From Heteronotia binoei (taxonomy: Eukaryota): a stretch of 64,000 bases of DNA. This document shows positions 681 to 62,397 of the stretch, piece by piece (position 1 is the first letter of the stretch; each line of letters opens with the position of its first letter). The position numbers and the translations under genes are program-made. The stretch lies in the NCBI RefSeq assembly GCF_032191835.1, contig NC_083237.1, forward strand, positions 40,796,001 to 40,860,000, in the 5' to 3' direction. The notes under the pieces were generated by a model. That model worked only from the letters and a program-made list of their open reading frames with translations. It did no database searches and had not been told where the DNA came from.

Positions 681-808
681 CCTTACATCTCATGGTGAAA
701 TGGAGTATAGTAAGAGCATGGTTGAATCACACCAAAGGAGGCAGTGGCTTAGCTCCTTATCCAGGGAAAGCAGGAATTCCGCGTTGAAGATGCACCGAGA
801 TTTCTTAC

Positions 809-1252
809 CTCCTTCTCTCCAGAAGCATCCTCCAAGGGAGTCACCTGGTGACCTCGGTGCTCCTGGGATCTGCTGCAGGTCACGCAGAGGGCGGCTTCAT
901 CCTCCCCGCAGAAAAACATCAGGGGCTCCCGGTGCTTCTCGCAGACGCCCCCTTCCCCTTCTCCCCCCTTCGCTTCCGCCCCCTCCCCTTCCAAAGGGCT
1001 GAATTTCTTAGCTATTTCGACAAAGTTGGCCAGCAGCTGGTTGGGGCGGAGGTTCCCCTGCTGAGCTGCTCCTCTGCATTGGGGGCAGGAAGGCTCTGCA
1101 GCAGCCCCCGCCTCCCCCCAGCTGCGGGTGAGGCAGGCTCGGCAGAAGTTGTGGCCGCACTGGGTGACGATCACCGGGTCCCTGAAGAAGTCCAGGCAGA
1201 TGGAGCAAGAGGCTTCCTCGCAGAGCTTCTTCAGGGGACCTTTAGCCGCCAT
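809..1252 (-). CDS. TRIM-family E3 ligase (TRIM27/39/7-like), first coding exon: RING + B-box2
   Basis: MAAKGPLKKLCEEASCSICLDFFRDPVIVTQCGHNFCRAC...CPQC is a C3HC4 RING; CEKH...FCGEDEAALCVTC...H..H is a B-box. ATG at 1252 has Kozak context gcagccATGG. Phase-0 donor gag|gtaaga at 809/808. Downstream coiled-coil and PRY-SPRY exons were not identified in the window. Confidence 0.9.
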
Positions 1253-1720
1253 GGCTGCCCCCTTGGCCAGGGGAGAGAGAGAGAAGAACAGAATCGGTTT
1301 CGGTTTTTCCTGCGTTTCCCAAAGCAGTGAGGAGGGCGTTTCCCTGCGAGCGAATGACTCTGCCGCCGGCACCCAATCAGCGACCAGCCGAGCAATGCCC
1401 CCCAAGAAAGAGTCGCTGGGAAAAGAACAAAGCAGTAGATGGGGGGGGGGCTCTTTAAGACCAACTAAATTTTGTTCCGAATGTAAGCTTTCGTCTGCTC
1501 TGAGCAGACTTCATCAGACAAAATTGCAATGGCAAGCCATCTTTAAATATAGAGAAAGTAGACAGAAAGAATGCCGCTTTTGCACTTCTTTGCTGGCGTT
1601 TGGACTAGGCGCCTCGGAGGGAAGCGAGGGAGACTGAGGGGTCTGGCAGGGGAGACATCCCAGTGTCTGGGGAGATGTTAGAGGTCCCCGGCAAGTAGGG
1701 GTGAAAGGCACGGATCGGGC
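1253..1720 (-). promoter_or_regulatory. GC/CpG-rich 5' UTR and promoter region of the TRIM gene
   Basis: CpG-rich stretch contiguous with TRIM exon 1 against a CpG-poor background; TSS not located. Confidence 0.35.
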
Positions 1721-3640: not shown

Positions 3641-4321
3641 CATCATCAGTTAGTCGACATTTATTCCATTACAGATGCATGTGTGTCTAAACTTGATTAA
3701 GAAGTATCAAGTTTAATATTCTATGGTTCTATACAAATGATTCACATAAAGAAACATATATTAATGCAGTTCCATTTGTGCAAGATTGCCTGCAGCTTTC
3801 TAACTTTACAAGCTCATGTGTAATTTTCATGCTCAGAAACAGGTTGAACAAGAGTTTGCAAGCATAAATTCAAGTGTAGATTCAATGTTTGAATTAGTGC
3901 AAGCAGCTATTGCCCCCCCCCCCCCCAGTCGGAATAACAAGGCAAACACTTTAATTTTTGGGTAATAAAACAGGGCAACTTTATTGAACATTTTTCTATG
4001 GCATGAGGCAACCTAAAATGCTGGACAGGCCAAGGGAAACCCCTGACCCTTCCCTGTCTGGCAAGGGCAAGCCACCCAGCCCCCGGCAGTAGCCAGTTTG
4101 CATTGGCTAATGCCAGGCTGGCTAAGGCCGGGTTTACCCTCCACCCGGTGCAGGCCTTAACCGAGGAGGGAACCCTATAGCGAGCATCACAGCAGAGAGC
4201 CATACAGCCCAGCTGCCATTCCATCCTGCCACTTCCCCTCAAACAGCGTAAACCAAGGGTGCTCACCAGTGTCCTAAATCACCCAAAGCACACTCCAGCC
4301 ACTGACAATGCCAAGCCTCAG

Positions 4322-4745
4322 CTTAGGCACTTGCACCCACCGGGTGGCCCAGAGCCACCCGAAGCCCCAGCCGTAGCTCATGCTAAAAGGCCTTGTTGCC
4401 CTTCACAGACAGGTGGACCCTGTCCTGCCGATACAGGTCCGCCAACTCCGACCTTATAGCAGGATGCGGAAGGTAAACACCCAAGCCTCCACACAAGGCC
4501 TTCTGAAGGGCCCTGTTGGCCTTGCGTCTGACCCTTTCAATCCCTGCTGGATCCCAGGCCGCCCTCCAAACCCTGTGAGGAAGTATGGCAGACCACAGAA
4601 TCAGCCCCCTGCTTTGTACGATCTGAAGATCCTCACTCGCCTGCAAAGAAAGGGCCCTCCCTTTCAAAATGCCAAGAAAATTGCCACCAAGGTGGGCCAC
4701 CAAAACAGTCCTCCCTTGAAAGAGAAGTGGCTGGAGCCCGGACCA
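4322..4745 (-). pseudogene. SGNH-hydrolase ORF remnant of Ngaro copy 1
   Basis: HLGGN (block III) and DRVHL (block V, DGVHL in copy 2); block I removed by a deletion near 4752; premature stop at 4383. Confidence 0.75.
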
Positions 4746-4749
4746 GCAT

Positions 4750-5520
4750 AGCCTATGTGGAATGAGTGTATCCCAAATTTAACCCCATCAAGCCCAAGCT
4801 TCTCCAGGGTCCTCGTAGTTACAGTCCAAAACTGAAACTTGGTTAACAGGGACTGATTTGCGTGGCGGAATAAGGGATCATCGTCCTCTCCTTGAGTAGC
4901 AATATACCACTTTAATGCGATCACTGGGCAGAGTTCCTGCTCCCGACATAAACCCAGAGCGATCATCACACCCTTCTGTTTCTGGTCGGTTTTTGATCTC
5001 CATACCCTAAGAGATACTTGGTCCCCTACAAATTTAATGTCACCCGAATGCAAGGCACGATCAGCACTATCTTGGCGCGAGCTTGCAACTAGCTCACTAA
5101 CCCTGAAGGCCCCAAAGAAGGCCACCAATGCCGCTGCATGAAACAATCCCAACTCGAAAGTAGAGGTACACATTTTGGGTCACACTGAATGCAATCCTTT
5201 TAGAACTGCTGAGGAAATGGATTGCCTCGTGTCCGGTCGAGGATCTTGCTCATGCTCCCACCCCTCTAACATCTTCTGTAGTCTGAAATCACCCGTGGCC
5301 TCTGAAAATCCCTGGATTTTACTATTAAATGCCAAGGCAGCCATACTTGCCCTGATGGACTTAACCACAAGCCCCTTACCTTTCAAGTGGACGTAGAAGT
5401 GCATGAGATGTGAAGCTGGGATAGGCCAAATTGCACGCAACCCTACCTGCTCCCTAAACATTTGAAACTGCAGGACAGAGCGGTTATATGCCTTCCTGAT
5501 ACTGGGTGCCAGAGCTAACT
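4750..5520 (-). pseudogene. Tyrosine recombinase remnant of Ngaro copy 1
   Basis: LALAPSIRKAY..., FFGAFRVSELV, RSKTDQ, HSFHIG; frameshifted and C-terminally deleted. Confidence 0.85.
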
Positions 5521-5559
5521 GCATTGCATGGTTAGCCTCAGCTCTCCAAGCTGCCACAT

Positions 5560-7140
5560 GTCCGGGGGCATCCGTGCCGGCCAAAGATTGGCCTATGGTG
5601 CAAGCTGCCGAAATTGCTCCATCTGCCGGTGAGACAGAGTGTCCGCCACACCATTGCAAACACCAGGCACATGCTTTGTGAGGAATAAAATATTCAGACG
5701 CAAACAATGTAATGTGAATGCTCTGACCAAATCATCACTGGGGCAGATTTGGAAGTAAGAGTGTTAATAATGTGAACCACTGCCTGGTTGTCTCACCAAA
5801 AATGAACGACATGATTGGCCAGTTCAGCCCCCCAAAGCTGAACTGCTACCACTATTAGGAAAAATTCTAAAAAGTTCAAATTTCGGCATAGCTCACTGTT
5901 CAACCACTCCCTAAGCCATCCTTCCGTGCACCAATGTCCAAGGAAGTACACCCCAAATCCAATGGATGTGGCTACATCAGAAGTGATCTGCAGATCAGCT
6001 TCAATCTCATGTCATCCCGTCAAAAGGAAATGCCATTAAAGGATGACAAAAACTGCTCCCACACCTCTAAGTCCTGCTGCATTCCACTGCTAAGCCTGAT
6101 CCAGTGATGAGGAAGATGTAAAGCCCCTATGGCATCACACAGCTGCCGCAGGAAGGCCCTGCCCAGGGCCACCACTTTGCATGCAAAGTTAAGGTGGTCA
6201 ACGATCTGCTGAAGTTCCAATAGAGAAATCTTCTGCCTACCTTTCAGTGCAGCCAATTTCAGCCTCAGGTCTTGAACCTTCTCCACTGGCAGCCATGAAG
6301 CTTGCCGCACGGTGTCCAACTCGATACCCAAAAAGGTCAACACCAATGAGGGGCCCTCCATCTTTTCATGGGCCAGCAGGACCCCAAGGTCCCTAGCCAG
6401 CCCTACAAATGTATGGAGCAGCCGTGCACATTGGCCTGACCCCCCCGGGACCACAAGCAAAAAATCATCAAGGTAATGGACCAAGTTAGCTGAACCAGCC
6501 TTCCTCCATAAGGCCCATTGCAAAAAGGAACTAAAACGCTCAAAGACCGCACATGATATAGAGCAACCCATGGGTAATGTCCTATCCATGTAATATTTGC
6601 CCTCGGATATAAAATCCAGTAGCTCAAAGTCGTTGGGTTGCACCGGGAGGAGGCGAAACACTGACTTAATGTCACATTTAGCCATCTCTGCCCCCACCCT
6701 GCAAGTCCAAACCCCTTTGACTGCCTGGTCAAAGGAGGTGTACCAAACTGAACAAAGGGAATGGCATCATTCATCGACCCCCCTTTTGGGTAGGACAAGT
6801 GATGAATGAGGCGAAATTCCCCAGCCGCCTTCTTGGGCACCATGCCTAAAGGAGATATCCACAGATTCAGGACAGGAGGGCTATCAAAAGGGCCTAGTAC
6901 TCGGCTCTCTGCACATACCTTCGCTATCTTGTCCCTCACCACATGTTCCAACCCGTGAACTGAATGTAAATTCCGGGACATAGAGGATCCCCTGAGGTCC
7001 TGAAATGGAATATGAAACCCTAACACGAAGCCCTCCCACAAATACTTCCCGTCAGCTACCCTGGGGTACTCAGTCAAAAGGTCCTTAAGTACCCTCAGCC
7101 TGATTGGACTGGGACACTTTCCCAGATGCTTGGGTGCTCC
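5560..7140 (-). pseudogene. RT/RNase H remnant of Ngaro copy 1
   Basis: PLGMVPKKAAGEFRLIHHLS, KCDIKSVFR, LPMGCSISC, HYLDDF; several frameshifts. Confidence 0.9.
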
Positions 7141-8612
7141 CCCCAGTCCCCAGACGCTTACTTCCAGCTCTTGGTTTTGATTTGTTGCATGCCGAGAAAG
7201 CATGGGACCCCCCACACAGTGGACACTCGTGTTTGTATTTGCAAGTTTTTCTATTGCACATGCCCTGCAACGTGTACTCCCAACACAGCAGCCGGGGTTG
7301 AACTGGCTGCCCCGCTGCTGCGTGGGGACCAGCTATGCTCGCCTGCTTACTCACGAGATGGCCACTAGTGGACCTGTCGCCACTATTAGGCTTTGCCGGT
7401 GACATCAACTGCAGTCACAGCTGCTGGTTGATCTGGTCCCAGGGTATTGCCGGGTTCAGGTCAGCCCTCATATGGAACTCCTCATCGTACTGCAACCAAG
7501 CAGCATCAGAGAAGTCCGTATAAGCCTTATAGATGATGTCACAGTATTGAAATAGCGGTGCTGCCCGTAAAAGCTGAGTACGTGCAATCACCCTTGCATA
7601 AATCAGAAACCGTAGCAACCAGTTCGTCCAATTCTTATCCACCTTTCTCCACTTCAATTTCTCCTTGTCCTTATCCTCTAATTCGTCTTTGTCCTTCTTC
7701 TCAAGCTCCCTATAAAAAAGGCTAAAAACGTCAACATATTCCCCCCTTAAAATCTTTTCCCCGGTGGCCACTGTCAAGTGGTCCCCCAGGGGCATGGTGG
7801 TGTCTCCAAAGGGGTGACACTGAAAGGGGACTGCCCCATAGGAGGTCGGGGCCAAACCCCATCCTCCCCATCGAGATGCAGGCCAACCGGCCGGCCATTG
7901 GCTATAGAGGTGTTGACCCCAGGGCAAAGATCCAGACAACATCTGGTTGAGCCCCCTGCAAATTGGACTGTGTAGCAACTGTTGAGGAAGGCTGAGTATG
8001 CCCCCAGGGAAAATACTGACCTTGGGCAAACGGGGCCAAAGCCCGTGGAACACAGGGCTGGTTAGGTAACTCCCCCAAACCACCCAATCCAAACATAGCC
8101 GTAGAACCCACTGGACCAGGCATGTACAGGGACCCCCAACCACCTTAGGGCCACCCACTACTGGGCCCTGGACTATTATGCTTACCCTCTGAGTCCTCTG
8201 CATTCACAGCAACTACCACCGGAGCCAGGCCCACCCACCTGGGGCAACTTGCAGCATCTGGAGTGTTGCCTTCTCCATCAGACTCGGAATCATTCTTGTC
8301 AACCGGGTCATGGCTCGGTCCTCCTGAACTGCCTGCCCGAGCAGTGCTGCCCTGCAAAGCAGAAAGATGTGCCAGTACCTCCTGTTCAAAGGCCCTAGTA
8401 GATGCCCCTGCTGCCTTACGGCCCTTAACAAGTCTCGTTGCCCCCGGGTCCAGACCCTGCTGTTGCTACAGTGCCCCAAGCTGATCCATAATCACCCACC
8501 TGGTGAGCACCTCCTCCTCATCCCCAGGCACAGGATTCGCTGCGCACTTCCTGGCAGCGCCCTTAAGGGACTGCTTGCCCTTTAGCATGCCCTGACACTT
8601 TTTAGGAGCCAT
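7085..8612 (-). pseudogene. Gag-like ORF1 remnant of Ngaro copy 1
   Basis: Starts MAPKKCQG at 8612; contains PLGDHL...GEYVDVFSL, AAWLQYDEEF and CWEY...CNRKTCKYKHECPLCGGSHAFSAC; interrupted by stops and frameshifts. Confidence 0.8.
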
Positions 8613-9902: not shown

Positions 9903-10189
9903 TTAGGGTTTGTAGAATCTTTCGAGCTCAAGTGCCGTGTTCTACTGGAGAAAGTTTTTCTTCCAGACGTTTCGTTCTCAGCTGCGGAGAACATCCGCAG
10001 TGGCGTTGCAGCCGGAGCAGGCGCTCTGACCTCGCCTGCTCCGGCTGCAACGCCACTGAGGATGTTCTCCGCAGCTGAGAATGAAACGTCTGGAAGAAAA
10101 ACTTTCTCCAGTAGAACACGGCACTTGAGCCCAAAAATTCTACAAACCCTAATGATGTTACCAGCCGTGAAAACCTGAAATCTTTGATA
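9903..10189. mobile_element. Penelope-like fold-back insertion (inverted pseudo-LTR fragments)
   Basis: About 120-bp inverted arms joined at 10032/10033; flanking duplication tttaagag(tta); same termini as 57711-58518. Confidence 0.8.
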
Positions 10190-13686: not shown

Positions 13687-14637
13687 CTATGAAAATTTGG
13701 GTTTTTTTAAGAGATGAATGTGGAGACATAGTTTCCTGAGAGCCACTTTGACTTCCTTGTTCTTCAAGCTGTAAATAAGAGGATTTAACAAGGGTATGAA
13801 GACAGTGTAGAAGAGTGACAGGAATTTTTCTGTATCAAAAGATTGACTTGACTTGGGCTTCAGATACACTGTCATTCCAGAGCCATAGAAAGACATCACC
13901 ACTATGAGATGTGAGGAACATGTTGAGAAAGCCTTGCTCCTTCCCTCTACAGATGGCATCTTTAGAATGGTAGAAGCAATGCATATGTATGAAATGGAAA
14001 TCAAAGCAAATGGGATTAATCCAAGAAATACTGCCTCCAGAAACAATATATGCTCATTTATAGAGGTGTTGCCACAGACTAGTTTGACCACAGCAGGAAA
14101 GTCACAAAAGAAATCGTTGATTTCATTGGAGTCACAGAAAGAAGAGGTGAACACCAGGACAGTTTGGCCAACTTGCATTGGGATTGCAGCCATCCAGGAG
14201 GATGCAACCAACCCAGAGCACACTGTATTACTCATAATGATGGTGTAGCGCAGTGGGTGACAAATGGCAACGTAGCGGTCATATGCCATGGCAGCCAAAA
14301 GAAAACATTCTGCTGCCCCTGTGATAAGGAAGACGTTCATTTGAAAGGCACAACTGAGGAATGAAATGGATTTATCCTCTGACAGCAGGTTTTCAAGCAT
14401 TTTGGGGACAACAGTTGAGGTGTAGCATATCTCCAGAAAACTCAGGTTCCTGAGAAAGAAAAACATGGGGCTGTGGAGTGTCTGGTAGACCAATGTGACA
14501 ATAATTATGAGAGCATTCCCACTGAGAACTGACAGATAGACAGTTAGGAAAACAGAGAAGAACAAACCCTCCAGTCCTGGCAAATCAGAGAATCCCAGCA
14601 ACAGGAAATTATTTAATGTGCTTTGATTTCCTTTCAT
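13687..14637 (-). CDS. Olfactory receptor, class II (family 10-like), intact, 316 aa
   Basis: N-glycosylation site NQS; LHSPMFFFL, MAYDRYVAICHPL, KAFSTCSSHL, PLLNPLIYSL; polypyrimidine tract and AG acceptor at 14646-14647 just upstream of the ATG. Confidence 0.97.
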   Translation of the reverse strand: MKGNQSTLNNFLLLGFSDLPGLEGLFFSVFLTVYLSVLSGNALIIIVTLVYQTLHSPMFFFLRNLSFLEICYTSTVVPKMLENLLSEDKSISFLSCAFQMNVFLITGAAECFLLAAMAYDRYVAICHPLRYTIIMSNTVCSGLVASSWMAAIPMQVGQTVLVFTSSFCDSNEINDFFCDFPAVVKLVCGNTSINEHILFLEAVFLGLIPFALISISYICIASTILKMPSVEGRSKAFSTCSSHLIVVMSFYGSGMTVYLKPKSSQSFDTEKFLSLFYTVFIPLLNPLIYSLKNKEVKVALRKLCLHIHLLKKPKFS

Positions 14638-15029
14638 TTCTCAATCTGGTTAAAAAGAAAAGAAAAGAAGCAATAATTTAACAGCAACTCATGAAATGAG
14701 ACATCTAGCAATTCTAAATTTAGTGCCATCAAACAGGAAGCACTATGTAACTGGACCATACTTGAAGTTTTATACATGATTGGGTTTTACAATGAATATC
14801 ATCTACAGTGTAGCAGAAGCAAAAAAGAAAAAAAAGTCCCATCTTCTGTTGACAATGATTGAAGCTGTGTTCACTCTTAGTTGGATATTGTACTATAGCA
14901 ATTGTATGATGCTGGATTTCTCTGTGTAGGAAAGACAGCCAGGAGATGAAATTGCTACAGGGAAATAACAATGCAATATCCAAAGAAGTGTGGATACAGC
15001 TTATATTTAAGATGAGGACTACGTATTAT

Positions 15030-23301: not shown

Positions 23302-23857
23302 GACTGATTTCACACTGGGCGTTTTTGCACTGACCTTTTACTGGCGCGACCACCCTCCTCACGCCAGCGGATCTGCAGGGATTTCGCACCAGAAGCGCCG
23401 GCGCAGCCAAAAGAGCCGGATACTTCCGTCGCGAAACCCGCTCAAACGTTTTCCTGCTTCTTGGCGGTTTCCGTTTGAGCTGGTTTTGCGACGGAAGTTG
23501 CCGGCTCTTTTGGCTGCGCCGGCGCTTCTGGTGCGAAATCCCTGCAGATCCGCCGGCGTAAGGAGGGTGGTCGCGCCAGTAAAAGGTCAGTGCGAAATCA
23601 GCCACTATGTTTGTTCCGGGTTGGAGAGCCCTTTTGCTACAGGGGCTTTACTCCATTTTTGCACAAGTTGCCCTGGAGCTGCGAGTTGCCACACTGTTAT
23701 TCTGCAGCAAGCAGAAACCGCTTGTCAACATATCCTGCTTGCTGCGGAATAGCAGCGTGGCAACTCATAGCTCCGGGGCAATTTGTGTGAAAATGGAGTG
23801 AAGCCCCGGTAGCAAAGGGGCTCTCCACTCCGGAACAAGTATAGTGTGAAATTGGTC
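23302..23857. mobile_element. Two nested PIF/Harbinger-type MITEs (outer 23302-23857, inner 23317-23603)
   Basis: Outer TIRs gactgatttcacact / agtgtgaaattggtc with flanks taa / tat; inner palindrome flanked by a 3-bp act duplication and related to 18932-19164 and 28050-28237. Confidence 0.8.
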
Positions 23858-23904: not shown

Positions 23905-24864
23905 TCACACTTTTAATTTCTGATTCACAAATCGCCCTTCCAGAATCTTTCCAACAGCCTTTCTCAGGGCTTCCCTAACATCCTTGTTTCTCAGGCTATA
24001 TACCAAAGGGTTGACTATGGGAGGCAAGACTGTGTACAAAAGAGAAAATATTTTGTTAATGTCTTTCATGGTTTCAATTTTTGGTACTATGTACACAATC
24101 ATTAAGGCACCATAGAAAAGAGAGACAACAATCAAGTGAGAAGAGCAGGTGGAAAAAGCCTTTTGCCTTCCAGTAGTGGATGGAATTTTCATGACGGCAG
24201 CAATAATATATATATAGGACAATAAAGTCAAAAGAAATGGTGGAAACGTAAATATGATAGCCATGATTACACTGACTCGTTTGATGAAACTGGTATTACT
24301 GCATGATATTTCAAGGAATGATAGAGACTCACAAAAGAAATGATCAATTTCATAGTGATCACAATACCAAAGCTGTAACATAAAAGCCAGATATATTGAA
24401 CTAAACACAATCCCATTGATCCAGGACCCAGCTGCTAACTGGATACAAAGCTTTCCATTCATAAGAGCTGCATAATGAAGGGGTTTGCATATAGCTAAGA
24501 AACGATCATAAGACATTACACAGAGAAGATAACATTCTGTACCAGCTAGGCAAGCAAAGAAATATAGCTGTGTGATACATTGTTTGAAAGATATGGTTTT
24601 GTTCCCTGTCAAGAGACTAGACAGCAATCTGGGTAGGATGGCTGAGCTGTACAGCATCTCCAGGCAGGATAAATTTCCCACAAAGAAATACATGGGAGTA
24701 TGTAGATGCTGATCTGTCACCATCAAGAGAAAGGTGAGGAAGTTGGCCAATATAGTTAAAATGTAGATCACCAAAAACAGCAGAAATAGAAAGATTTGAA
24801 GGTTGTGGAGTTCCTCAAATCCCAGAAGGATGAAGTCTGTGATCAGTGACTTGTTTCCATGCAT
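23905..24864 (-). CDS. Olfactory receptor, class II (family 11/6-like), intact
   Basis: Probable start MHGNKS at 24864 (open frame extends to 24912); LHTPMYFF, MSYDRFLAICKPLHY, KAFSTCSSHL, PPIVNPLVYSLRN. Confidence 0.96.
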   Translation of the reverse strand: MHGNKSLITDFILLGFEELHNLQIFLFLLFLVIYILTILANFLTFLLMVTDQHLHTPMYFFVGNLSCLEMLYSSAILPRLLSSLLTGNKTISFKQCITQLYFFACLAGTECYLLCVMSYDRFLAICKPLHYAALMNGKLCIQLAAGSWINGIVFSSIYLAFMLQLWYCDHYEIDHFFCESLSFLEISCSNTSFIKRVSVIMAIIFTFPPFLLTLLSYIYIIAAVMKIPSTTGRQKAFSTCSSHLIVVSLFYGALMIVYIVPKIETMKDINKIFSLLYTVLPPIVNPLVYSLRNKDVREALRKAVGKILEGRFVNQKLKV

Positions 24865-25244
24865 TATTTTTGATATCAAATACATATAGTTATTGCAGGT
24901 CCTGAAATTCAATTTGATATAACATAAATAAGAAGTATTATATAAGCATACATTTGTTATGTATCTTTCCTTTTAGGATTAAAGTAAGGTGAACAGTTTT
25001 TATTTTAAATGAAATTGATAAGGTAGGCAATGGGTGTACAGCCCTCTGATACTACTGATTTCTACGTGCTTTCTTTGTTGTAAGTGTTAAAAATATATAT
25101 TGCCCCACTCCTCTGAGTGTTCATACCAAAGCTTCAATAAAATGAATATAAATTAGAGCAAAATGTAGATTCAGAGGGGAAAACCTCCAACAACTTATGT
25201 TCCAGCATTCAGGATGCAGCTATTGCAATTTCTAGATTCCTCGG

Positions 25245-38450: not shown

Positions 38451-38619
38451 TCCACATCCTTACCTGTCTGGTTAAAGGAAATGGATGAAGAGAGTAATAT
38501 TCACTACTTAAAAACAAGTGAAATGAGAGTGGGAAAACTTTAGTGAAAAGAAGCAGATTATAAAACATTTTATGGAAAGAAGTATAAACATAATATTTCT
38601 TTATCTCTAGATTTGATCC

Positions 38620-39573
38620 ATGGAAAAGAAGGTGTGGGACAACCAAACTACGGTTACAGAATTTATTCTTCTGGGATTTGGAGACAACCCAGATCTTCAG
38701 ATATTTCTCTTTCTCATAGTCCTGATTATCTACATGGTGACCATGGTTGGAAACATCCTCATTTTTGCTCTTGTTGTGGCTGACCAACACCTGCACACAC
38801 CCATGTACTACTTTCTGGGAAATCTTTCCTGCTTGGAGACCTTCTACAGTTCTACCATCCTTCCCAGGATGTTGGGCAGTTTCATGACTGGAAACAGATC
38901 CATTTCCTTCATTGACTGTTTTTTACAGATGTATTTCTTTGGTTCTCTTGCTGCAACAGAATGTTTCCTCTTGTCTGCCATGTCATATGACAGATACTTG
39001 GCCATCTGCAAGCCTTTGCACTATACAACCCTTATGAACAATAGAGATTGTCTCCATTTAATAATTGGGTCTTGGATAAGTGGTTTTCTAGGAAATAGCA
39101 TATTGTTTCCTCTGCTGCAGTTAACATTCTGTGGGCAGAATGACATTGATCATTTCTTTTGTGACTTCAACCCCTTGCTAAAATTAGCATGCAGTGACAC
39201 TCAAAAAATAGTCATTTTTGCTTTCATAATTGCTTGTATATTCACATTGCCTCCTTTTCTCTTGACTGTGACATCCTATGTTTGCATCATTACCACCATC
39301 CTGAGAATTCCCTCTTCTGTAGGAAGGCAAAAGGCTTTCTCCACCTGCTCCTCCCATCTCATTGTAGTTACCATTTTCTATGGGACATTGATGATAGTCT
39401 ATATGCTGCCCAAAACCCAAGCACTGGGAGATCTGAACAAAGTCTTCTCAGCATTTTACACGATCTTAACTCCTATGGTCAATCCCCTCATATACAGCTT
39501 GAGAAATAAAGAAGTAAAACAGGCCTTGAAGAAGGTTCAAGAGAAAATAATGCCAGCTAAATTCCTAAGCTAA
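38620..39573 (+). CDS. Olfactory receptor, class II (family 11/6-like), intact, 317 aa
   Basis: NQT glycosylation site; LHTPMYYF, MSYDRYLAICKPLHY, KAFSTCSSHL, PMVNPLIYSLRN; acceptor tttctttatctctag ending at 38610. Confidence 0.97.
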   Translation: MEKKVWDNQTTVTEFILLGFGDNPDLQIFLFLIVLIIYMVTMVGNILIFALVVADQHLHTPMYYFLGNLSCLETFYSSTILPRMLGSFMTGNRSISFIDCFLQMYFFGSLAATECFLLSAMSYDRYLAICKPLHYTTLMNNRDCLHLIIGSWISGFLGNSILFPLLQLTFCGQNDIDHFFCDFNPLLKLACSDTQKIVIFAFIIACIFTLPPFLLTVTSYVCIITTILRIPSSVGRQKAFSTCSSHLIVVTIFYGTLMIVYMLPKTQALGDLNKVFSAFYTILTPMVNPLIYSLRNKEVKQALKKVQEKIMPAKFLS

Positions 39574-41418
39574 AGCAAAGAGTGTTGTGAATGTTCAGGT
39601 CCTACAGATACTTTTGATCTACAGTAAAATAAAAGCTAGTTTTTGCTTGTACTAGCGTATAAAACATCTGTATTTGATCAGTTGAAAAGAGGAAATGTGT
39701 GATCTAGGGATTAAAGTTGAAATGTGTCCACTTCCATTTTACAGGTATGCTAAAATTCAGACATTGGTCATGCCCTCCATTGAGCATTCCAGGAATTTAG
39801 CCATGAGGAAAAACTGGTAACTGACAGTATATCCCTGGTTGCAGCTAGAAACTTTCCAGCAATAATTTGTGCAAGCACAATGTTTGAATTTTGGATTGCT
39901 GTGTTCATATAACCACTGCTCAAAAGTAGGTATGTGTACATGAGAGAGTTATATTAAGGCCATTTGTCATTAAAAAAAAACTTGACTTGGGAAGGTCCAC
40001 TGCCATTTTATGTTCTATGTTAGATATTTTTTTTTTGTGATTTTAACCTTTTATTGTATTTTATGCATATTGATGTACACTTCCTTGAGCCCTGTCCTAT
40101 GGGAGAGGGTAATTTAAGAATTGAAATAATAAATACTATGGCATCATAACCTTTCAGCTCATAGATTTTTCTCTGATAAAAAAAAAATGCAGGCAGTGTA
40201 TGATTACAATGGCAACATATCCAGTCATGTTTATCCATTCCATAATTATTTAATACTAGAATTACAACTCATATTAGAAAATTAATCCAGAGTAATTTCC
40301 AGTGGATCCACTATATTTCCAGATGGAATGAAATGTTAAGTCAAATCATTCAGAAGTGATATGCCCTCCCAAATTTTAAGCAGAACTTTACAAAGTGTCT
40401 ATGTTCTGTCTACATATCTATCCAGAAAATAAGATTGCAGGATCCAATGGCATCAACTACACAATCTCTGGCTAATCCTCCAATGTGATATAGGCTTTCA
40501 TGTGCAACAATGCCCCTCTGCTCTGTACATAAGACAAACCAGCCAATCTCTATGCAAAAGAATAAATGCACACAAATCTGACATTAAAAATGGGAGTATC
40601 CAGAAACTAGCAGAACACTTCAATCTACCAGGACATTCCATCAAGAACTTAAAGGTCATCATAGTTCAACAGAAACATGTCAAAAACAAAATCAGGAAGC
40701 TGCTGTATTGGAATTTAAATGTAAATTTGACTCAGTCAGACTTGAATTGAATAGAGACTTTGGATGGTTATCTCATTACCAGAAGTATGCGGCCCCTTCT
40801 CGCCCATGCTGCTGTACGGCGGCATAGGGCGGGGGCCATGTTTGCCTCCCCGGATGGAGTTGAGGCAAACAGACCTCCACCCATCCAGGGATGTCGGGGG
40901 GGGGGGGGCGTGGATTGGGGCTTTATCAGTCCCAGCTACGCCTCCAGTGGCACTGTTTTGGGGCGCTTTTGGCTGGAGCAGGAGCGTTTTTCAGCACTCC
41001 TGGCTGATCGGGCTGTGGCCTGCGTCGTTGACATCACGGCACAGAGGGAGAACGGGGGCGTGTGGTTTTTAGCCTCTGGGCTACCAGCACAGCTTTTGAG
41101 CAGAGCGGAGGAGCGTTAGCTCAGCCCGCTCTTCCCCCTCTTCTGCCCCTCATCATTATCAGGAGTACCTGGGGCTGCCAGCTGGACCCGGCCTATACAA
41201 CACAGGCTCGACGACAGGTTTTGGAGGCTTCTCCAGTGGTCCCCTGTTTAAGAGGGCCTTCATTGTTGGGTTGGGGGGATTCTTTTTGGAGCGTAGTGCT
41301 GTTGTTGCCTGCCACTCCCCCCTCCCTCCCTTGGTGGCACAGGGGTGGGTAAGCAGGCCCCCCCTTTCTTGTATAGATACCCCCCATCAAGTGGTTTTTG
41401 AGGGTGGTGGGACTGGCT

Positions 41419-42962
41419 ATGGCCCCCCCCAAAAAGTCAGGGGGTATTTAAGGGCAAGCAGCCCCTTAAGGGAGTGGCTAAGAGGCACACACCTATTGAA
41501 CGCCCTGGGGAGGAAGAGGAGGCATGCACCAGGCGAGCTATAATTGAGCAGCCTGGTGCGTTGGAATGGCAGCAGGGTTTGGACCCTGGGTCAACTGGGC
41601 TAGTCAGGGGCCATAAAGCAGCAAGGACTTCTACCAGGGCTTTCGAGCAGGAGGTTTTGACTTGTCTTTCTACTTTACAGGATATGGCCGCTCGGGGTGG
41701 TACTTCTGGAGAGCCGAGCCGGGATCCACCGGACAACAATTCCAATTCTGAGGGAGAGGGCAACACTCCGGATGGGGCAAGTCTCTCTGGGTGAGGCAGG
41801 GTTCTGGCACCGGTGGAGGTAGCAGTTAATGTCGAAGATCCAGATGGTAAGCATTGCAGTTCAGGTAATAATAGTGGGTGGCCCTGAGGGGGGGGGGGTT
41901 GGGGAGCCCCCTACATGCCAGGTTTGGCTGGCTCTACGGCTATGTTCGATCCTGATGGTGTGTGTGTGTGGGGGGTCACCTAACCTGCCCAGTGTTCCAG
42001 GAGCTTGGGTCCCTGGGGTTCAAGGGCAGGTCTTTCCTTGGGAGCCTACTCAGGTCTCTTTGACTGCTGCTGTGCAATCTACTTTGCAGGGGGCTCCGTC
42101 ACATCAGTTGTCGGTTGGGTCTTTACCATGGAAAAAACAACTTTATAGTCAATGGCCGGCTGAATGGCCAGCAGCGCAATGGGGTGGATGGGGTTTGGCC
42201 CCGACTCCTTATGGAGCAGTCTTTTTTCAGTGTCAACTGTTTGGGGACATCGCCATGCCCCTGGGTGACCATTTGACGGTTGCTACCAGGGAAAAGATTT
42301 TGTGTGGGGAGTATGTTGATGTCTTTAGCCTTCTTTATAGGGAGCTTGAGAAGAAGGACAAGGATGAACTAGAGGATAAGGACAAGGAGAAACTCAAACG
42401 GAGAAAGGTTGAGAATTGGGTTAACTGGTTGCCAGGGTTTTTGATTTATGCAGGGGTAATAGCGCGTGCACAGCCTCTACGGGCGGCACCGCTATTCCAA
42501 TATTGTGACATTATATACAAGGCTTATACGGACTTCTCGGGTGCTGCATGGTTGCAGTACAACGAGGAGTTCTGTATGAGGGTGGCATTGAACCCTGCAA
42601 TTCCCTGGAATCGGATTAAGCAGCAGCTGTGGCTGCAATTTATGTCTCCGGCTAAGCCTAACAGTGGTGACAGGTCTGACAGCGGTCATCTTGTGAGTAA
42701 ACAGGCGAGTGTAGTTGGTCCCCGCACAGCAGCGGGGCAGCCGGTTCAACCCCGGCTGCTGTGTTGGGAGTACATGTCGCAGGGCATATGCAACAGGAAA
42801 ACGTGTAAGTATAAGCATGAGTGCCCGCTGTCTGGGGGTTTGCATGCCTTATCAGCATGCAATAAATCCAAGCCCAGACCTGGGGGTAAGCGTCCAGGTG
42901 GCTGTGGGAATACCCAATCAGCAAACAAAGGGGCCCAGCCCCATCAAGCTGAGGGTACTTAA
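41419..42962 (+). pseudogene. Gag-like ORF1 of Ngaro copy 2
   Basis: ATG at 41419 (MAPP...KGKQPLKG after a frameshift); open stretch 41829-42962 with CWEY...CNRKTCKYKHEC finger. Confidence 0.8.
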
Positions 42963-44120
42963 GGACCTTTTGGCGGAGTACCCTAGGGCTGACGACAGGA
43001 AGTATTTGTGGGAGGGCTTTCTTTTTGGGTTTCATATTCCATTTCAGGGCCCCAGGGGACCCTTTCTGGCAAGGAATTTATGTTCAATTCAGGGGATGGA
43101 ACAAGTGGTGCGGGACAAGATAGGGAAGGAGTGTGCGGAGGGCTGTGTGTTAGGCCCTTTTGACAGTCTGCCTATCCTAAATTTGTGGGTATCCCCTTTA
43201 GGCGTTGTTCCGAAGAAGGCGCCGGGGAAGTTCCGTCTCATTCACTACTTGTCTTACCCAAAAGGTGGGTCGGTGAATGACGCCATTCACGATTTCCTAT
43301 GTTCAGTTCTGTATACCTCCTTTGACCAGGTGGTCAAAGTGATACGGAGTTGCGGTGTGGGGGCGGAGATGGTGAAATGCGACATTAAGTCTGCGTTTTG
43401 CCTTCTTCTTGTGCACCTCGATGACTTTGAGCTTTTGGGTTTATGTTCGAGGGCAAGTATTACATGGATAGGGCTTTACCTATGGGTTGCTTTATATCCT
43501 GTTCGGCCTTTGAGTGTTTTAGCACCTTTTTGGAATGGGTCCTGTGTAAACGGTCGGGCTCAGCTAATTCAGTTCATTATCTGGATGATTTCTTGTTTGT
43601 AGGCCTGCGAGGGTTGGGCCAGTGTGCCCGGCTGCTTCAGTCCTTTTTACGGCTGGCGGGGGACCTCGGGGTCCTGCTGGCCCATGAAAAGACGGAGAGC
43701 CCTTTACTGGTTTTGACCTTTCTGAGTATTGAGTGATTGAGCAGTGAACTATGTCGTAATTTGACATTTCTGGAGTTTTTCCAATAGTGGTAGCTGCTCA
43801 GCTGTGGGGGGCTGAGTTGGCTAATCATGTTGTGCATTTTTGGTGTGGCAAGCTGGCAGTAGTTCAAGTTATCAATACTCTGACTTCCAAATCTGTCCCA
43901 GTAATGAGCCTCATTAGGTCATTCACTTTACATTGTTTGTGCTTGGACATTTTATTTCTTGCTAAGCATGTGCCAGGTGTTTGCAATGGTGTGGCGGATA
44001 CTCTGTCTCACCGGCAGATGGAGCGATTTCGGCAGCTTGCACCAGAAGCCGAACTTCGGCCAGCACAGATGCCCACAGAGATGTGGCAGCTTGGAGAGTT
44101 GAGGCTGACTGGGTAATGCA
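42900..44120 (+). pseudogene. RT/RNase H of Ngaro copy 2, internally deleted
   Basis: PLGVVPKKAPGKFRLIH, KCDIKSAF, HYLDDF; deletion near 43736 relative to copy 1; LEFFPIVVAAQLWG. Confidence 0.88.
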
Positions 44121-44903
44121 GTTAGCTCTGGCACCCAGTACCAGGAAGGCCTATAATTGCTCTGTCAAGCAGTTTCAAGCATTTAGGGAACAGGTAGGGT
44201 TGGGCATGCTTTGGCCCATTCCAGCGTCACACCTCATGCAGTTCTGCATCCATTTGAAAGGTAAGGGGCTTGTAGTTAAGTCTATAAGGGCAAAGTTGGC
44301 AGCTTTGGCTTTTAACAGTAAAATAAAGGGATTTGCAGATGCCACAAGTGATTTTAAGGCTGCACAAGATGTTAGAGGGTTGGGCCCGGGAGCAGGGTCC
44401 TTGGCTCAACACAAGGCAACTCTTTTCTCCTTCAGTTTTAAAGGGATTGCATGCGGTGTGGTCCAGAGTTTGTACCTCTACGTTTGAGGCTTTATTGTTT
44501 CAGGCTGTGGCACTGATGGCTTTCTTCAGGGCACTCAGGGTTAGCGAGCTAGTGGTTAGCTCGCGCCACGACTGTTCTGGTTGTGCCCTTCATTCCGACG
44601 ACTTAAAATTTGATGGTGACCAGGTATCTATTAAGGTACGGAGGTCAAAAACTGAAGCAGAAGGGTGTTGTGATCACCTTGGGTTCGTGCCAAGACCAGG
44701 AAATTTGCCCAGTGCTTGCATTAAAGAGGTACATTGCCGTACGGGGTGAGGATGCGGGTCCCTTATTCTGCCATGAAGATTGGTCACCATTGACCAAGTT
44801 CCAGTTTTGGACGATCACCTCCAGGGCCTTGGAGAAGCTGGGGCTGGGTGGGGTCAGATTTAGGACCCACAAGGGTTATGTTCACCCATTGGACTCCCAA
44901 TAG
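44115..44903 (+). pseudogene. Tyrosine recombinase of Ngaro copy 2
   Basis: MQLALAPSTRKAY, FFRALRVSELV, RRSKT; deletion at 44870/44871 joins RTH to KGYVHP. Confidence 0.85.
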
Positions 44904-44978
44904 AGCCTGGATATGGGTGATGTTGTTCCCAGTGTTGGGATTGTTCACTTTGTTCCTTTCTATTTTCCAGGTGCTGTG

Positions 44979-45567
44979 ATGTGGCGTGAGAGGCTGAGGA
45001 TTTTGATCACCGATCATAGCATGGTGTTTTGGGTGGCCCACCAGGCGTGGCGTTCATCAATTAGATCTCAGTTGGGGCTCAACAAGTGGGCTGTGGTCTA
45101 GTGGCAGAGACGCTGGGGCCTGCGGTGGGCCAGGCTCCTGCCACTCCTATTCCAGGGGAGGACGGGTCCTCCGCAGCATGTTTTGGTTATCCACCTCGAT
45201 GGCAACGTTCTTGGCTTGCTGAAGGGGAGGGCCCTTTTACTGCAGGCAATTGAGGATCTTCGGGTTATACAGGTGGCCCGAGGTGCTGATTTTGTGGTCC
45301 GCCATCCTTCCTCGCAGGGTGTGGAGGGCTGCCTGGGATCCTGCGGGGATCGAAAGGGCTAGGCGCAAGGCCAATAGGGCGATCAAGAAGGCGCTATATG
45401 GAGGCCTTGGTGTTTACTTGCCACACCCTGCTATAAAGTCGGAGTTGGCAGACCTATATCAGCAGGACGGTGTCCACCTGTCTGTGAAGGGCAACAGGGC
45501 CTTTTTGCACGAACTACAGCTGGGGCTTCGGTTGGCCTTGGGCCAACCGGTGGGCGCAAGTGCCTAA
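44979..45567 (+). pseudogene. SGNH/GDSL-hydrolase ORF of Ngaro copy 2
   Basis: RILITDHS (block I, Ser at 45018), IHLDGN (block III, 45192-45206), DGVHL (block V, 45466-45480); one stop and a frameshift. Confidence 0.8.
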
Positions 45568-47779
45568 GCGGAGGCTTGGGATTGTGGTGGTAGGAGTTTG
45601 ATTTGGGCTATATAGGTAACCAGTGAATACCCTCAGTTTGTCCCTGTTTCAGGGGAAGTGGCGGGATGGGACGGCAGCTGGGCTGTACGGTTCTCTGCTG
45701 TGATGCCCGCTATAGGGTTCCCTCCTCTGGCAGGCTGCTCCTGTGTGTGTGACCTGGCCACTGGAGGGTATTCCTGGCCTTCGCCGGCCTGGAATTAGCC
45801 AGTACAAACTGGCTACTGCCGGGGGCTGGGTGGCTCGCCCTGTCTGGACAGGGAAAGGTCAGGGTTTCCCTTGGCCTGTCCGGTAGTTTAGGTTGCCCCA
45901 TGCCGTGGTTGTTCAATAAAGTTGCCCTGTTTGTTTATCCAATACACCGTGTTTGTCTCGTTCTTCTGACTGGGGGTGCAAACTGCCTTTTCCTTTCAGG
46001 TATTCTATTCAGATTCATCAATAGTAGGAAGTGGTCATGCCCAGCCTGGATTACACATTTTTCCTTTCCTTATTCAGCGTTTGCAGCTGCTTTACATTTA
46101 CATGGGACTCACTTCCTGCATCCACTCCCTCTCCCCCTACCACCTATATATGTCTGGCCAGTTTCTACATACCCTCCATACATTGGACAAAGAGAGCTGT
46201 GTTGTTTGAAAACTTATGCTACAACTAAATTTGTTAGTCTTAAAGGTGCTACTGGACTTTTTACTATTTTGCAGCAACAGACTAACATGACTAACTCCTC
46301 TGGATTTATGTTGTGTTGGAGAAACAAAAACAGACTGTGTAGGAGAAACAAAAAGAGAGTGGGAGACTAATACTTCAGGCACAAGAGTCTGCAGGATAGG
46401 TTAAATTTAGCTCCCCCTTCTATATGCTTGAAAAATAGATATGCATAAAGTTTTGCTTTAATTGTGCATGCTGGTTCATTTCCTCTCCCACTTAGAAAAT
46501 TATGCTGTTTTTCAATACAATAAACACATCTGAAAAATTTCATATTCTGTCTCAGTAATTCTGGTACTGTGAAGTGAAAAAGAGAACATTATACCTCCAC
46601 ATCAACAACGTCTCCTTCATCTCATACAAGTATATGTTGCTTTGTGGGTACATGTTTGTTCTTTGCTCTCATGTTTTGTGGGAAGGATAGAAGCCTTAAA
46701 TCTCAAATGTTCCTACTGAACATGTTAACAACACTCCAGGGTGCAAAATTTTGCTACTGTCACTGAAAAAAATACAACAGCAGCAGCAACAACAACAAAA
46801 AGCAGCCATCCAGGATTTAATACAGAATTTAATCCTGGATGAGTTACATGGCATATATTCCTAAATCTTCACTGGTGGGGGTTAGGCAGGCCTGTAGCGA
46901 CAATGGGTCCCCCAGGGGGAGCAAGTCACTCAATTCAATCCCACCTGCCATCTGTATGGCCCCTCCATTGGAGGGCCTCCAATCTGCCCCTTTTGCTCAC
47001 TGCCACTCTGACTGGGCCCCTGTGGCTGCTATGGTGGCTGACCCTTCCCAGCAGTTATGCCACAGGGATGGGGCTCACTCCTGGGATCACCGTACTGTGC
47101 CAGCATAGAAGAGCACCACGAAAAAGAGAGACCCTCCAAGCACTGGGGTGCCAAGAGAGGAAGCCTTCCTTGGAACAGAAAGAAGCCCCCGCTAGCTGGG
47201 TCCTCAATGGCCAGAGGCAGCAGGGGTCTTGGAATCTGAGGGGGGGGGCAGTTCATTCCAGGAGAGTGGGAAGGAGGCTTCACTTTTGTTTGGTCAGAGA
47301 GACTAGCAGGAAGAGACTTTGAATTGGCACTGTGTGTGTGTGGGGGGGGGGGAGAAACCTACATTCAGCTGAATTCCTCTGGAAGGTTTACTGAGTTATA
47401 CAAATGAGGGAGGGGGTGCTGTTGCTTTACTTGAAAAGCAGAGAAAGTAGGGGCCTGGCTCCCCCCCCAAAAAAAAAAATACTGCTGTGGGCTCTGCTAA
47501 AAATGAAATCCTGACTATGGCCCTAGAGTTAGGTTAACCTTTCCCAATTGCGTCTCCCTCAGAGTACTCAGTGATACATCATCATTGGTCTGAAGGTAAG
47601 GAGATAGTGACACTGTTTATCCCTTTAGCACTCTATCCCCTTTACACTGTGTGACATCAAGAACACTAGTGGTTTTGAAGCTGTGTACCTAATGTTGGGA
47701 TTGAAAGACATGTCACTATTAGTTTAACACCACCACTCCCCCCCCCCCAGTTCAGCAGTCTCACAGCCTGAGTTGATAG

Positions 47780-57460: not shown

Positions 57461-57710
57461 TCTTCTCACTCATCCAGCCAGGGAAATGGGACCCACTGAA
57501 CCTTCTGCATTTATACATTTGTCAAATTTCTGCATTTGTACAATTATTAAAGCTTACATGAAGGAGCGTCTTTGCCTCCTGCAGCTTCTCCACTGAATCA
57601 CATTGCGACTCAGTTAATTTTTGTCCTGCAGACCTGGGAATAAACTTTCTCAGGTCAGAAAAGACCAATATAGGTAGGAGACTTCTTCCCCAACTGTCAC
57701 TCTTACAACT

Positions 57711-58518
57711 TTAGGGTTTGTAGAATCTTTCGGGATCAAGTGCCGTGTTCTACTGGAGAAAGTTTTCCTTCCAGACGTTTCGTTCTCAGCTGCGGAGAAC
57801 ATCCTCAGTGGCGTTGCAGCTGGAGCAGGAGCTCAGACCTTCTTGGCTGCTGTGCATTGAGTGGGGCCAGGGCTGCTGGAGAGCTGCTATTTGTAGGCTG
57901 GAGGGGGTGTGATGAAAGGGCAATTGTTTTGTGGATGTGCCTATTGTTTGGTGGGGTTTCCTGGAAGGGTAGTAATAAGGAAACTGGCTGTTGAATGTGA
58001 CCATTGTTCTGTGTTAATTGCTGGGAAGGTTGGAAGGGGTTTGAAGATAAGGAAGATGGTTGTTGACTGTGCTGATTGTTCTGTGGAACAATCAACCAGC
58101 AAATTCCACAGAACAATCAGCACAGTCAACAACCATCTTCCTTATCTTCAAACCCCTTCCAACCTTCCCAGCAATTAACACAGAACAATGGTCACATTCA
58201 ACAGCCAGTTTCCTTATCACTACCCTTCCAGGAAGCCCCACCAAACAATGGGCACATCCACAAAACAATTGCCCTTTCATCACACCCCCTCCAGCCTACA
58301 AATAGCAGCTCTCCAGCAGCCCTGGCCCCACTCAATGCACAGCAGCCAAGAAGGTCTGAGCGCCTGCTCCGGCTGCAACGCCACTGAGGATGTTCTCCGC
58401 AGCTGAGAACAAAACGTCTGGAAGGAAAACTTTCTCCAGTAGAACACGGCACTTGATCCTGAAAGATTCTACAAACCCTAATGATGTTACCAGCCGTGAA
58501 AACCTGAATTCTTTGATA
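57711..58518. mobile_element. Penelope-like fold-back insertion with about 375-bp inverted arms
   Basis: Arms 57712-58088 and 58104-58478 around a 15-nt loop; 3' extension aatgatgttaccagccgtgaaaacctgaa; 12-bp TSD actcttacaact (57699-57710, 58519-58530). Confidence 0.85.
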
Positions 58519-61287: not shown

Positions 61288-61422
61288 TAATATTTTTGTT
61301 GCAAAAAGTCTCTGGACTGCAGAAAATTAAAAAAAAAAAACAAATGCTAAATTAACTGTCATCATTTCTTCATTCAATTTATTAACAAAAACTACCCCTT
61401 TTCTGCTATCTGCTTCTTCCAG

Positions 61423-62397
61423 ATGAAGAAAATCATTTCACCAAAACCAACCAACTTTACCGGAGTGACTGAATTTGTCCTTCTGGGTTTAACCAATCAT
61501 CTTGAACTGCAGGTGTTGTTGTTCATTGTATTTCTCTTGGTATACATAATCATAATGGTGGGTAATTTGCTAATTTTCATTATGATCCTTGTAGACCCAT
61601 CTCTTTACACACCAATGTATTTCTTTCTCAAGGTTCTCTCCTTCTTGGACATCTGCTACTCTTCAGTTACCCTCCCCAAAATGCTAGTGAATTTCCTGTC
61701 TGAGGACAAGAGAATTTCCTATATTGGCTGTGCTACTCAAATGTTCTTCCTGCTTTTCCTAGGGGCTTCAGAATGCTTCCTCTTGGCAGCTATGGCCTAT
61801 GATCGGTATGTAGCCATATGCAAACCACTGATGTACATGACCATCATGAACGAGAAATTTTGCCTTTCACTAACAGTTCTGTCATGGTTCTTTGGCAATT
61901 TGGTATCTTTGCTTCAGACAGTTTGGGTTTTTACTCTGCCATTTTGTGGATCAGATAAAATCAACTATTTTTTCTGTGATATACCGCCCCTCATCAAACT
62001 TTCTTGCATTGACACTTCTTCATATGAGATGCAGCTCTTTACAGCAACAATCCTAGTTATTTTGACACCCTTTTCCTTCATTGTTGTGTCCTACCTTCTG
62101 ATTATTTACAACATTTTAAAAATGGCAACAGTGGAAGGCCGTCAGAAAGCCTTCTCCACCTGCTCTTCACATCTCTTGGTGGTGACTTTGTACTATGGGA
62201 GTGGCAGCTTGGTCTACCTAAAGCCCAAATCCATTCATTCACAGGACAGTAACAAAGTGTTGGCTTTGATGTACACTGTCATCACCCCCATGTTGAACCC
62301 AATTATTTACAGTCTAAGGAACAAAGAGATCAGTGAGGCAATGAAGAGGATGGTGAACAAGGCAAAGAATCGAAAAATACTTTTCCATGGGACATAG
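61423..62397 (+). CDS. Olfactory receptor, class II (family 10-like), intact, 324 aa
   Basis: NFT glycosylation site; LYTPMYFF, MAYDRYVAICKPL, KAFSTCSSHL, PMLNPIIYSLRN; acceptor cttcttccag immediately before the ATG. Confidence 0.97.
   Translation: MKKIISPKPTNFTGVTEFVLLGLTNHLELQVLLFIVFLLVYIIIMVGNLLIFIMILVDPSLYTPMYFFLKVLSFLDICYSSVTLPKMLVNFLSEDKRISYIGCATQMFFLLFLGASECFLLAAMAYDRYVAICKPLMYMTIMNEKFCLSLTVLSWFFGNLVSLLQTVWVFTLPFCGSDKINYFFCDIPPLIKLSCIDTSSYEMQLFTATILVILTPFSFIVVSYLLIIYNILKMATVEGRQKAFSTCSSHLLVVTLYYGSGSLVYLKPKSIHSQDSNKVLALMYTVITPMLNPIIYSLRNKEISEAMKRMVNKAKNRKILFHGT

Follow-up and report, generated by a model that had tools for sequence, protein, structure and literature searches.

In Xenopus, the elements DIRS-53_XT and DIRS-54_XT encode a gag-like protein, reverse transcriptase/RNase H (RT/RNase H), and a tyrosine recombinase (YR), together with a fourth ORF for an SGNH hydrolase with "no proven function" (10.1101/2021.08.05.455354; PMC9210276). 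The DIRS-54_XT consensus is without split direct repeats, which some of its copies possess (10.1101/2021.08.05.455354; PMC9210276). YR retrotransposons have no protease, and their downstream frames overlap and carry no conserved start codons; the literature searched explains neither the route by which these frames are expressed nor the role of the hydrolase. Outside this group, the ORF1 protein of ZfL2-1, a CR1/L2-type LINE, forms a coiled-coil dimer, is an active esterase with a pI of 10.8, and binds acidic lipids (PMC3905857). Spliced subgenomic RNAs are known from LTR retrotransposons, such as the short GAG RNA of Arabidopsis Copia (PMC5580714). In the literature searched, including PMC7192593, PMC9341512, PMC3783388, PMC4495291, PMC4157794, PMC8547959, PMC6681497, PMC3212892, and PMC12477816, no description was found of splicing that joins a leader to YR or SGNH.

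The window, that is, the whole stretch of 64,000 nucleotides analyzed here, comes from an animal and contains olfactory receptor genes (Pfam 7tm_4) as well as two copies of an element comparable to those of Xenopus (Table 1). ORF1, RT/RNase H, YR, and SGNH follow one another in this order on one strand. The hallmark order of Ngaro elements, a gag-like ORF1, RT/RNase H, and YR on one strand, is present, as is the SGNH hydrolase ORF after YR that is a trait of the amphibian type. The element works like an amphibian-type Ngaro and resembles DIRS-53_XT and DIRS-54_XT in frame order, in its overlapping frames, and in the position of SGNH after YR, whereas splicing goes unmentioned in the paper on the Xenopus elements (10.1101/2021.08.05.455354; PMC9210276). 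Split direct repeats of the form A1-ORFs-B1-A2-B2 were found in neither copy by self-blastn or by local alignment against shuffles, and terminal repeats were not found in either copy. Since both copies are decayed, loss of the split direct repeats is possible; given their absence, the element is filed as Ngaro-like and not as a member of Ngaro. After RNase H, no Pfam match to a methyltransferase was obtained in the frames scanned, which are broken and were compared with general Pfam profiles. The nearest named homologs of the element are gecko proteins.

Table 1. Features of the Ngaro-like element in the window.
Feature	Position	Strand	Basis or remark
Copy 2, decayed Ngaro-like YR retrotransposon	40790..45980 (limits approximate)	+	GC shift and alignment with copy 1
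Copy 1 of the same element	3922..8612	-	Leader, donor 8186/8185, and YR acceptor 5623 present; SGNH acceptor deleted
Donor of the original prediction, GT at 41349	41346..41354	+	Pairing with the SGNH acceptor unsupported
Coding exon of the ORF1 leader, with a basic N-terminus, two helices (predicted), and a flexible linker	41419..41846	+	P0007 alignment and model
Shared phase-1 donor: exon end 41846, GT 41847-41848	41844..41852	+	atg/GTAAGC, score 8.9
Rest of ORF1: Pro/Gly linker, gag-like core, Cys/His finger; frameshifted	41847..42962	+	Product of donor read-through
RT/RNase H frame, broken, overlapping gag and YR	42715..44116	+	RVT_1 E 6e-05, under the Pfam curated cut-off
Phase-1 acceptor ahead of the recombinase	43998..44017	+	ccggcag/ATGGAGC in both copies
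Tyrosine recombinase, frameshifted, ~30 codons missing after His 44868-44870	44018..44903	+	Stop 44901-44903
SGNH acceptor, phase 1: branch-point-like motif, pyrimidine tract, AG	44944..44970	+	Splice-site score and start of homology
SGNH esterase exon	44971..45567	+	Ten Eublepharis macularius RefSeq proteins carrying PF13472 match at 58-69% identity
AATAAA, polyadenylation-signal-like	45915..45920	+	Common to copy 1

The GC content climbs from 0.38 to 0.63 near 40800 and drops past 46000, which delimits copy 2, and its positions 41428-45976 align to copy 1 at 77-79% identity. Within ORF1, the gag part is recognized through residues 241-559 of the database protein P0025, which align to 41997-42956 (55%). 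The leader, gag, RT, YR, and SGNH are all broken in copy 2. In the leader exon, the breaks are a frameshift near 41423-41430 and a stop codon at 41792-41794; in the SGNH frame, a stop codon at 45099-45101 is followed by a frameshift near 45267. Copy 2 is unable to make any of the three proteins proposed below in intact form. The 5' regions of the two copies, 40790-41418 (+) and 9240-8613 (-), each about 630 nt long, are unrelated, and the bodies behind them are 78% identical; promoter replacement or recombination is possible.

The original prediction had placed a splice acceptor directly before the SGNH frame, and this site stands: its pyrimidine tract runs up to an AG at 44970, and homology to RefSeq lizard gene models begins exactly there. 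With a score of 14.5, it ranks first of the 369 AG sites in 40780-45980 under a rough splice-site matrix (approximate frequencies), and a branch-point-like TTCAC is located 23 nt upstream, with its A at 44947. A best acceptor as strong was obtained in 6 of 300 two-base-block shuffles of copy 2. Since an acceptor-like site on the antisense strand of copy 2 scores 14.0, the motif at 44970 by itself is modest evidence. Searching with the broken SGNH frame, read with X at its two breaks, yielded ten Eublepharis macularius RefSeq proteins of 208-338 residues in a first round, and codon 44970-44972 is included in, or is the start of, the homology in eight of them (one match extends further upstream). 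The acceptor ending at 44970 is real; as DNA, it is seen in one copy only, as the stretch matching 44865-45126 is absent from copy 1, a deletion already reported in the original prediction.

All ten first-round matches carry the end of an N-terminal piece with a motif like PVAVAV, and none starts at the equivalent of ATG 44979. The origin of this piece is seen in P0007, in which residues 2-138 align to 41423-41848 and to 8612-8184 of copy 1, while residues 138-237 align to 44970-45269. Gly 138 is thus common to the leader and SGNH matches and, like Gly 139 of P0006, aligns to both 41846-41848 and 44970-44972. Because the leader exon ends at codon position 1 and the SGNH exon starts at position 2, the two join in frame. 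The aligned donor of copy 1, 8186/8185, reads agg/GTAAGC and scores 9.0. Both window copies read Gly-Lys through the donor into gag, which is the same Gly-Lys as in P0025; P0007 and P0025 have a common leader end and part at the donor, the former entering SGNH and the latter reading through Gly-Lys into gag. Inside the leader, a strong acceptor is also present at 41661-41680 (+) and at 8352 of copy 1 (scores 14.1 and 11.5), and the leader match of P0025 starts near the former, which may account for short isoforms. Acceptor-like sites occur just 5' of the ORF1 ATG in both copies (41357-41376 (+) and 8631 of copy 1), the match of P0022 starts at 41377, and a 5' UTR intron is possible.

In the gene models of relatives, the donor at 41846 also feeds the recombinase, a route missed by the original prediction, and YR is thus a second partner besides SGNH. 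P0024 leaves the leader and enters the recombinase at window codon 44017, and in all ten YR-entering proteins the junction falls 38 residues before APST, an offset equal to that of the window codon, with Gly, Asp, or Val as the junction residue. Around this acceptor, 33 of 35 bases are identical between the window copies. Its score is weak (rank 21 of the 369 AG sites), and its AG is forced, being part of a Gln codon in the overlapping RNase H frame. Isoforms X1 and X2 of LOC129337769 differ by one residue at the YR junction, as is typical of tandem acceptors. For RT, ten candidate AGs for a phase-1 acceptor were considered in 42600-43200, of which the best scores 2.8 and lies upstream of stops common to both copies; none was accepted. 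Both copies have lost the catalytic end of the recombinase through distinct deletions whose starts are a few codons apart at most (44865-44903; copy 1 4771-4745).

Three forms are found among the relatives. A search with the leader only returned P0025, in which the leader is read through into gag, and P0024, in which it continues into the recombinase. A leader profile, built from 14 leaders and scored against 8000 candidates, found 30 proteins in which the leader is followed by SGNH in 20 (three with a short YR-derived piece between), YR in six, gag in four, and RT in none, a tally that is biased because the profile was built mostly from leader+SGNH proteins. Contigs of 2.1-3.8 kb from ENA and Logan are the source of the four leader+gag matches. 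In three lizard families, the SGNH and YR forms part at one residue (P0023/P0024 at 138, P0040/P0186 at 123, and P0182/P0181 at 144), with such same-residue parting seen in Eublepharis, Hemicordylus, and Elgaria. Two of the three forms are listed as isoforms at each of four RefSeq loci, LOC128347973 (X1/X2), LOC128349017 (X1/X3), LOC134392018 (X1/X2), and LOC134398982 (X1/X2); to our knowledge, RefSeq lists isoforms only where transcript support exists. Leader+SGNH models are present in Anolis, Heteronotia, Pogona, and Rhineura as well.

The junction residue itself fits a split codon. Dereplication reduced 39 leader-bearing proteins to 19, and 18 of these have Gly or Asp at the SGNH junction, 14 residues before GHS, against a background of 15%, these proteins being mutually related and not independent samples. 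The residue is one with a G-starting codon in all 19, the neighboring positions vary, and Gly or Asp is what a split codon predicts. Relatives without a detected leader have Gly or Asp at this position in 23 of 80 cases, and named lacertid and frog proteins in one of nine; outside this squamate group, the position is not fixed. Lacertid and frog SGNH proteins have long low-complexity N-termini too. P0057, a 394-residue ORF call on a 1677-nt Logan contig, contains in one frame the leader, a 21-residue piece whose start resembles that of the YR exon (seven of its first nine residues match the window), and SGNH, whereas the leader and SGNH are 3.1 kb apart in the window. Its layout is that of Elgaria isoform X1. 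Junctions are known from gene models and ORF calls, with the read-through points of P0192 and P0196 placed by eye. Scans for related loci gave 172 pattern matches in metagenome contigs and 53 in viral contigs, of which none was confirmed.

The splice sites have a common phase and are present in both copies unless deleted, and database proteins of three forms part at one residue. It is proposed, with a probability of roughly 0.77, that in active relatives one ORF1 donor would give rise to three products by alternative splicing. Unspliced RNA, in which donor 41846 is read through, would produce leader+gag; a splice from 41846 to acceptor 44017 would produce leader+recombinase; and a splice from 41846 to acceptor 44970 would produce the leader+SGNH esterase. 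Judging from the gene models, the three forms are presumably real mRNAs and proteins, and splicing would supply the start codon absent from the YR and SGNH frames.

A different pairing had been put forward in the original prediction, in which a donor in the 5' UTR at 41348 is spliced to 44971 and the hydrolase is expressed alone from ATG 44979, as retroviral env is. That a splice skips gag, RT, and YR is supported by the leader-SGNH gene models of relatives. The GTAAGC at 41349 and the ORF1 ATG at 41419 both exist as motifs in copy 2, the ATG at 44979 is present and opens MWRERLRILITDHS, such a minor isoform is conceivable, and short RefSeq models of 208-250 aa occur. However, the leader exon end precedes SGNH in all ten first-round matches, the short ones included, and relatives carry the ORF1 leader ahead of SGNH, joined at the equivalent of 41846/41847. 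Met is found at the equivalent of 44979 in one of 19 distinct leader-bearing relatives. The 5' UTR donor ranks 8th of 361 GT sites and sits in a 5' region without detectable homology in copy 1, where this donor has no counterpart. An env-type arrangement would also call for a donor upstream of gag and a Gag-independent product, whereas the supported donor is inside ORF1 and about 140 residues are common with Gag. A free, env-like hydrolase is hence very improbable. Since the leader is joined ahead of SGNH in relatives, the product is likely a fusion of leader and esterase, similar to ZfL2-1 ORF1p of zebrafish.

The SGNH domain might alternatively be a C-terminal extension of the recombinase, made when the YR stop is read through or when a donor within YR is spliced to SGNH. 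In copy 2, SGNH shares the frame of the YR stop and follows it at a distance of 23 codons, and strong donors exist inside YR in both copies (44193, 44260). Among 147 further relatives, other pieces are joined to SGNH in 11 (YR pieces in nine, an RT/RNase H piece in one, and a gag piece in one), and in P0180, P0183, and P0057 a short YR-derived piece stands between the leader and SGNH. This extension is nevertheless highly unlikely, as full YR models stop at their own stop codon, with P0024, P0181, P0186, P0193, and P0198 ending just after YVR/YIR, and the YR-piece forms that can be checked still start with the leader and are without the catalytic domain. The lack of an in-frame YR-SGNH fusion, on which the original prediction depended, was thereby borne out. 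Somewhat less improbable, though still unlikely, is that the junctions represent cryptic splicing of de-repressed transposon RNA or annotation artefacts without a role, with YR and SGNH expressed by leaky scanning, re-initiation, or frameshifting. The 11 other joins would fit such noise, and coding conservation alone has left at least 14 donor-like and at least 16 acceptor-like sites common to both copies. Neither point accounts for a donor, phase, and acceptor offsets that stay the same across families whose leaders are about 30-60% identical, and the front of both YR and SGNH is without a conserved Met among relatives. Splicing from one shared ORF1 donor is therefore preferred.

The protein encoded by the third form has the features of an SGNH enzyme. 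Relatives possess the Ser, Asn, and Asp-His motifs and the flavodoxin-like fold of the family; all 24 compared retain the catalytic Ser and the block-III Asn, and the block-V DxxH was correctly located in 22 of them, the exceptions being P0057, where an earlier motif was matched, and P0195, where there was no match. In the window copy, DHS and DGVH are present and block III is damaged. In the AlphaFold model of P0007, with a mean pLDDT of 58.8, a basic and disordered N-terminus is followed by two helices of low confidence (residues 32-52 and 74-94; pLDDT 54-68), a long linker, and the SGNH domain. The best Foldseek matches of this model are PAF-acetylhydrolase and GDSL enzymes, and a PDB sequence search with P0007 gave one weak, unrelated match. 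As the ZfL2-1 esterase (4C1B) is not the top structural match (rank 33, E 6.9e-05), no special kinship with it is established. The SGNH parts have a pI of 9.7-11.2 in five of five. Five proteins of the same family (P0027, P0029, P0043, P0046, and P0173) are 1300-3100 residues long with 4-6 tandem SGNH domains, which may reflect domestication as a host gene or the merging of gene models. Ten other SGNH proteins (P0077, P0096, P0123, P0135, P0139, P0150, P0153, P0159, P0160, and P0171) have a different N-terminal helix with a G-x-x-W-L motif; those looked up are from frogs, making this a candidate amphibian leader family.

Like ZfL2-1 ORF1p, the leader-esterase form combines a helical N-terminal part, a basic stretch, a flexible linker, and a basic SGNH esterase with Ser-Asp-His and Asn (PMC3905857). 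It differs in that the LINE protein is described as the sole ORF1 product, whereas here the esterase would be one splice form with an N-terminus common to Gag and the recombinase. In addition, lipid binding and activity have been demonstrated for ZfL2-1 ORF1p (PMC3905857), while here they are putative. The shared basic helical leader could serve as a tag that draws the recombinase and esterase into the Gag particle, and the strongly basic esterase could direct this particle to membranes, as proposed for ZfL2-1 ORF1p. Such co-assembly through the leader and membrane targeting are suggested tentatively, at a little under even odds. More doubtful still is a general scheme for vertebrate Ngaro-like elements, in which a one-donor, several-acceptor program would place one leader, capable of self-association, on Gag, on the recombinase, and on an esterase that binds membranes, to form a protease-free particle, with the esterase as the counterpart of retroviral matrix/env, and which would extend to YR retrotransposons from protists to vertebrates.

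As with the subgenomic RNAs of retroviral env and LTR elements, host splicing would balance what a single compact transcript yields. Such spliced subgenomic RNAs also give rise to foamy virus Bet and HERV-K Rec. In contrast to those systems, the donor here is located within ORF1, about 140 codons from its start, splicing would yield the integrating enzyme itself, and there is no envelope protein. Introns are reportedly present in some Ngaro elements, so that prior mention of such splices is possible. A shared spliced leader offers one testable answer to how the recombinase and hydrolase are expressed. If true, it would redefine both proteins, with a recombinase of about 450-490 residues and a hydrolase of about 320-400 residues, and a group of lizard RefSeq genes labeled "uncharacterized" would be accounted for as splice forms of transposons. 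The leader-esterase form also points to convergence with the ORF1p esterases of LINEs.

Other features of the window surround the two copies. Copy 2 adjoins a frame at 40433-40790 (+) that resembles a GIY-YIG endonuclease remnant of a Penelope-like element; a Pfam scan of 40433-40747 gave no convincing family. A TRIM-like exon with RING/B-box is located at 749-1510 (-). Four olfactory-receptor-like frames are present at 13687-14640, 23905-24972, 38617-39573, and 61351-62397. Long near-perfect hairpin repeats at 57705-58487, 23311-23609, and 9920-10136, with arms of 384, 138, and 104 nt and related copies at several places, are likely miniature inverted-repeat elements.
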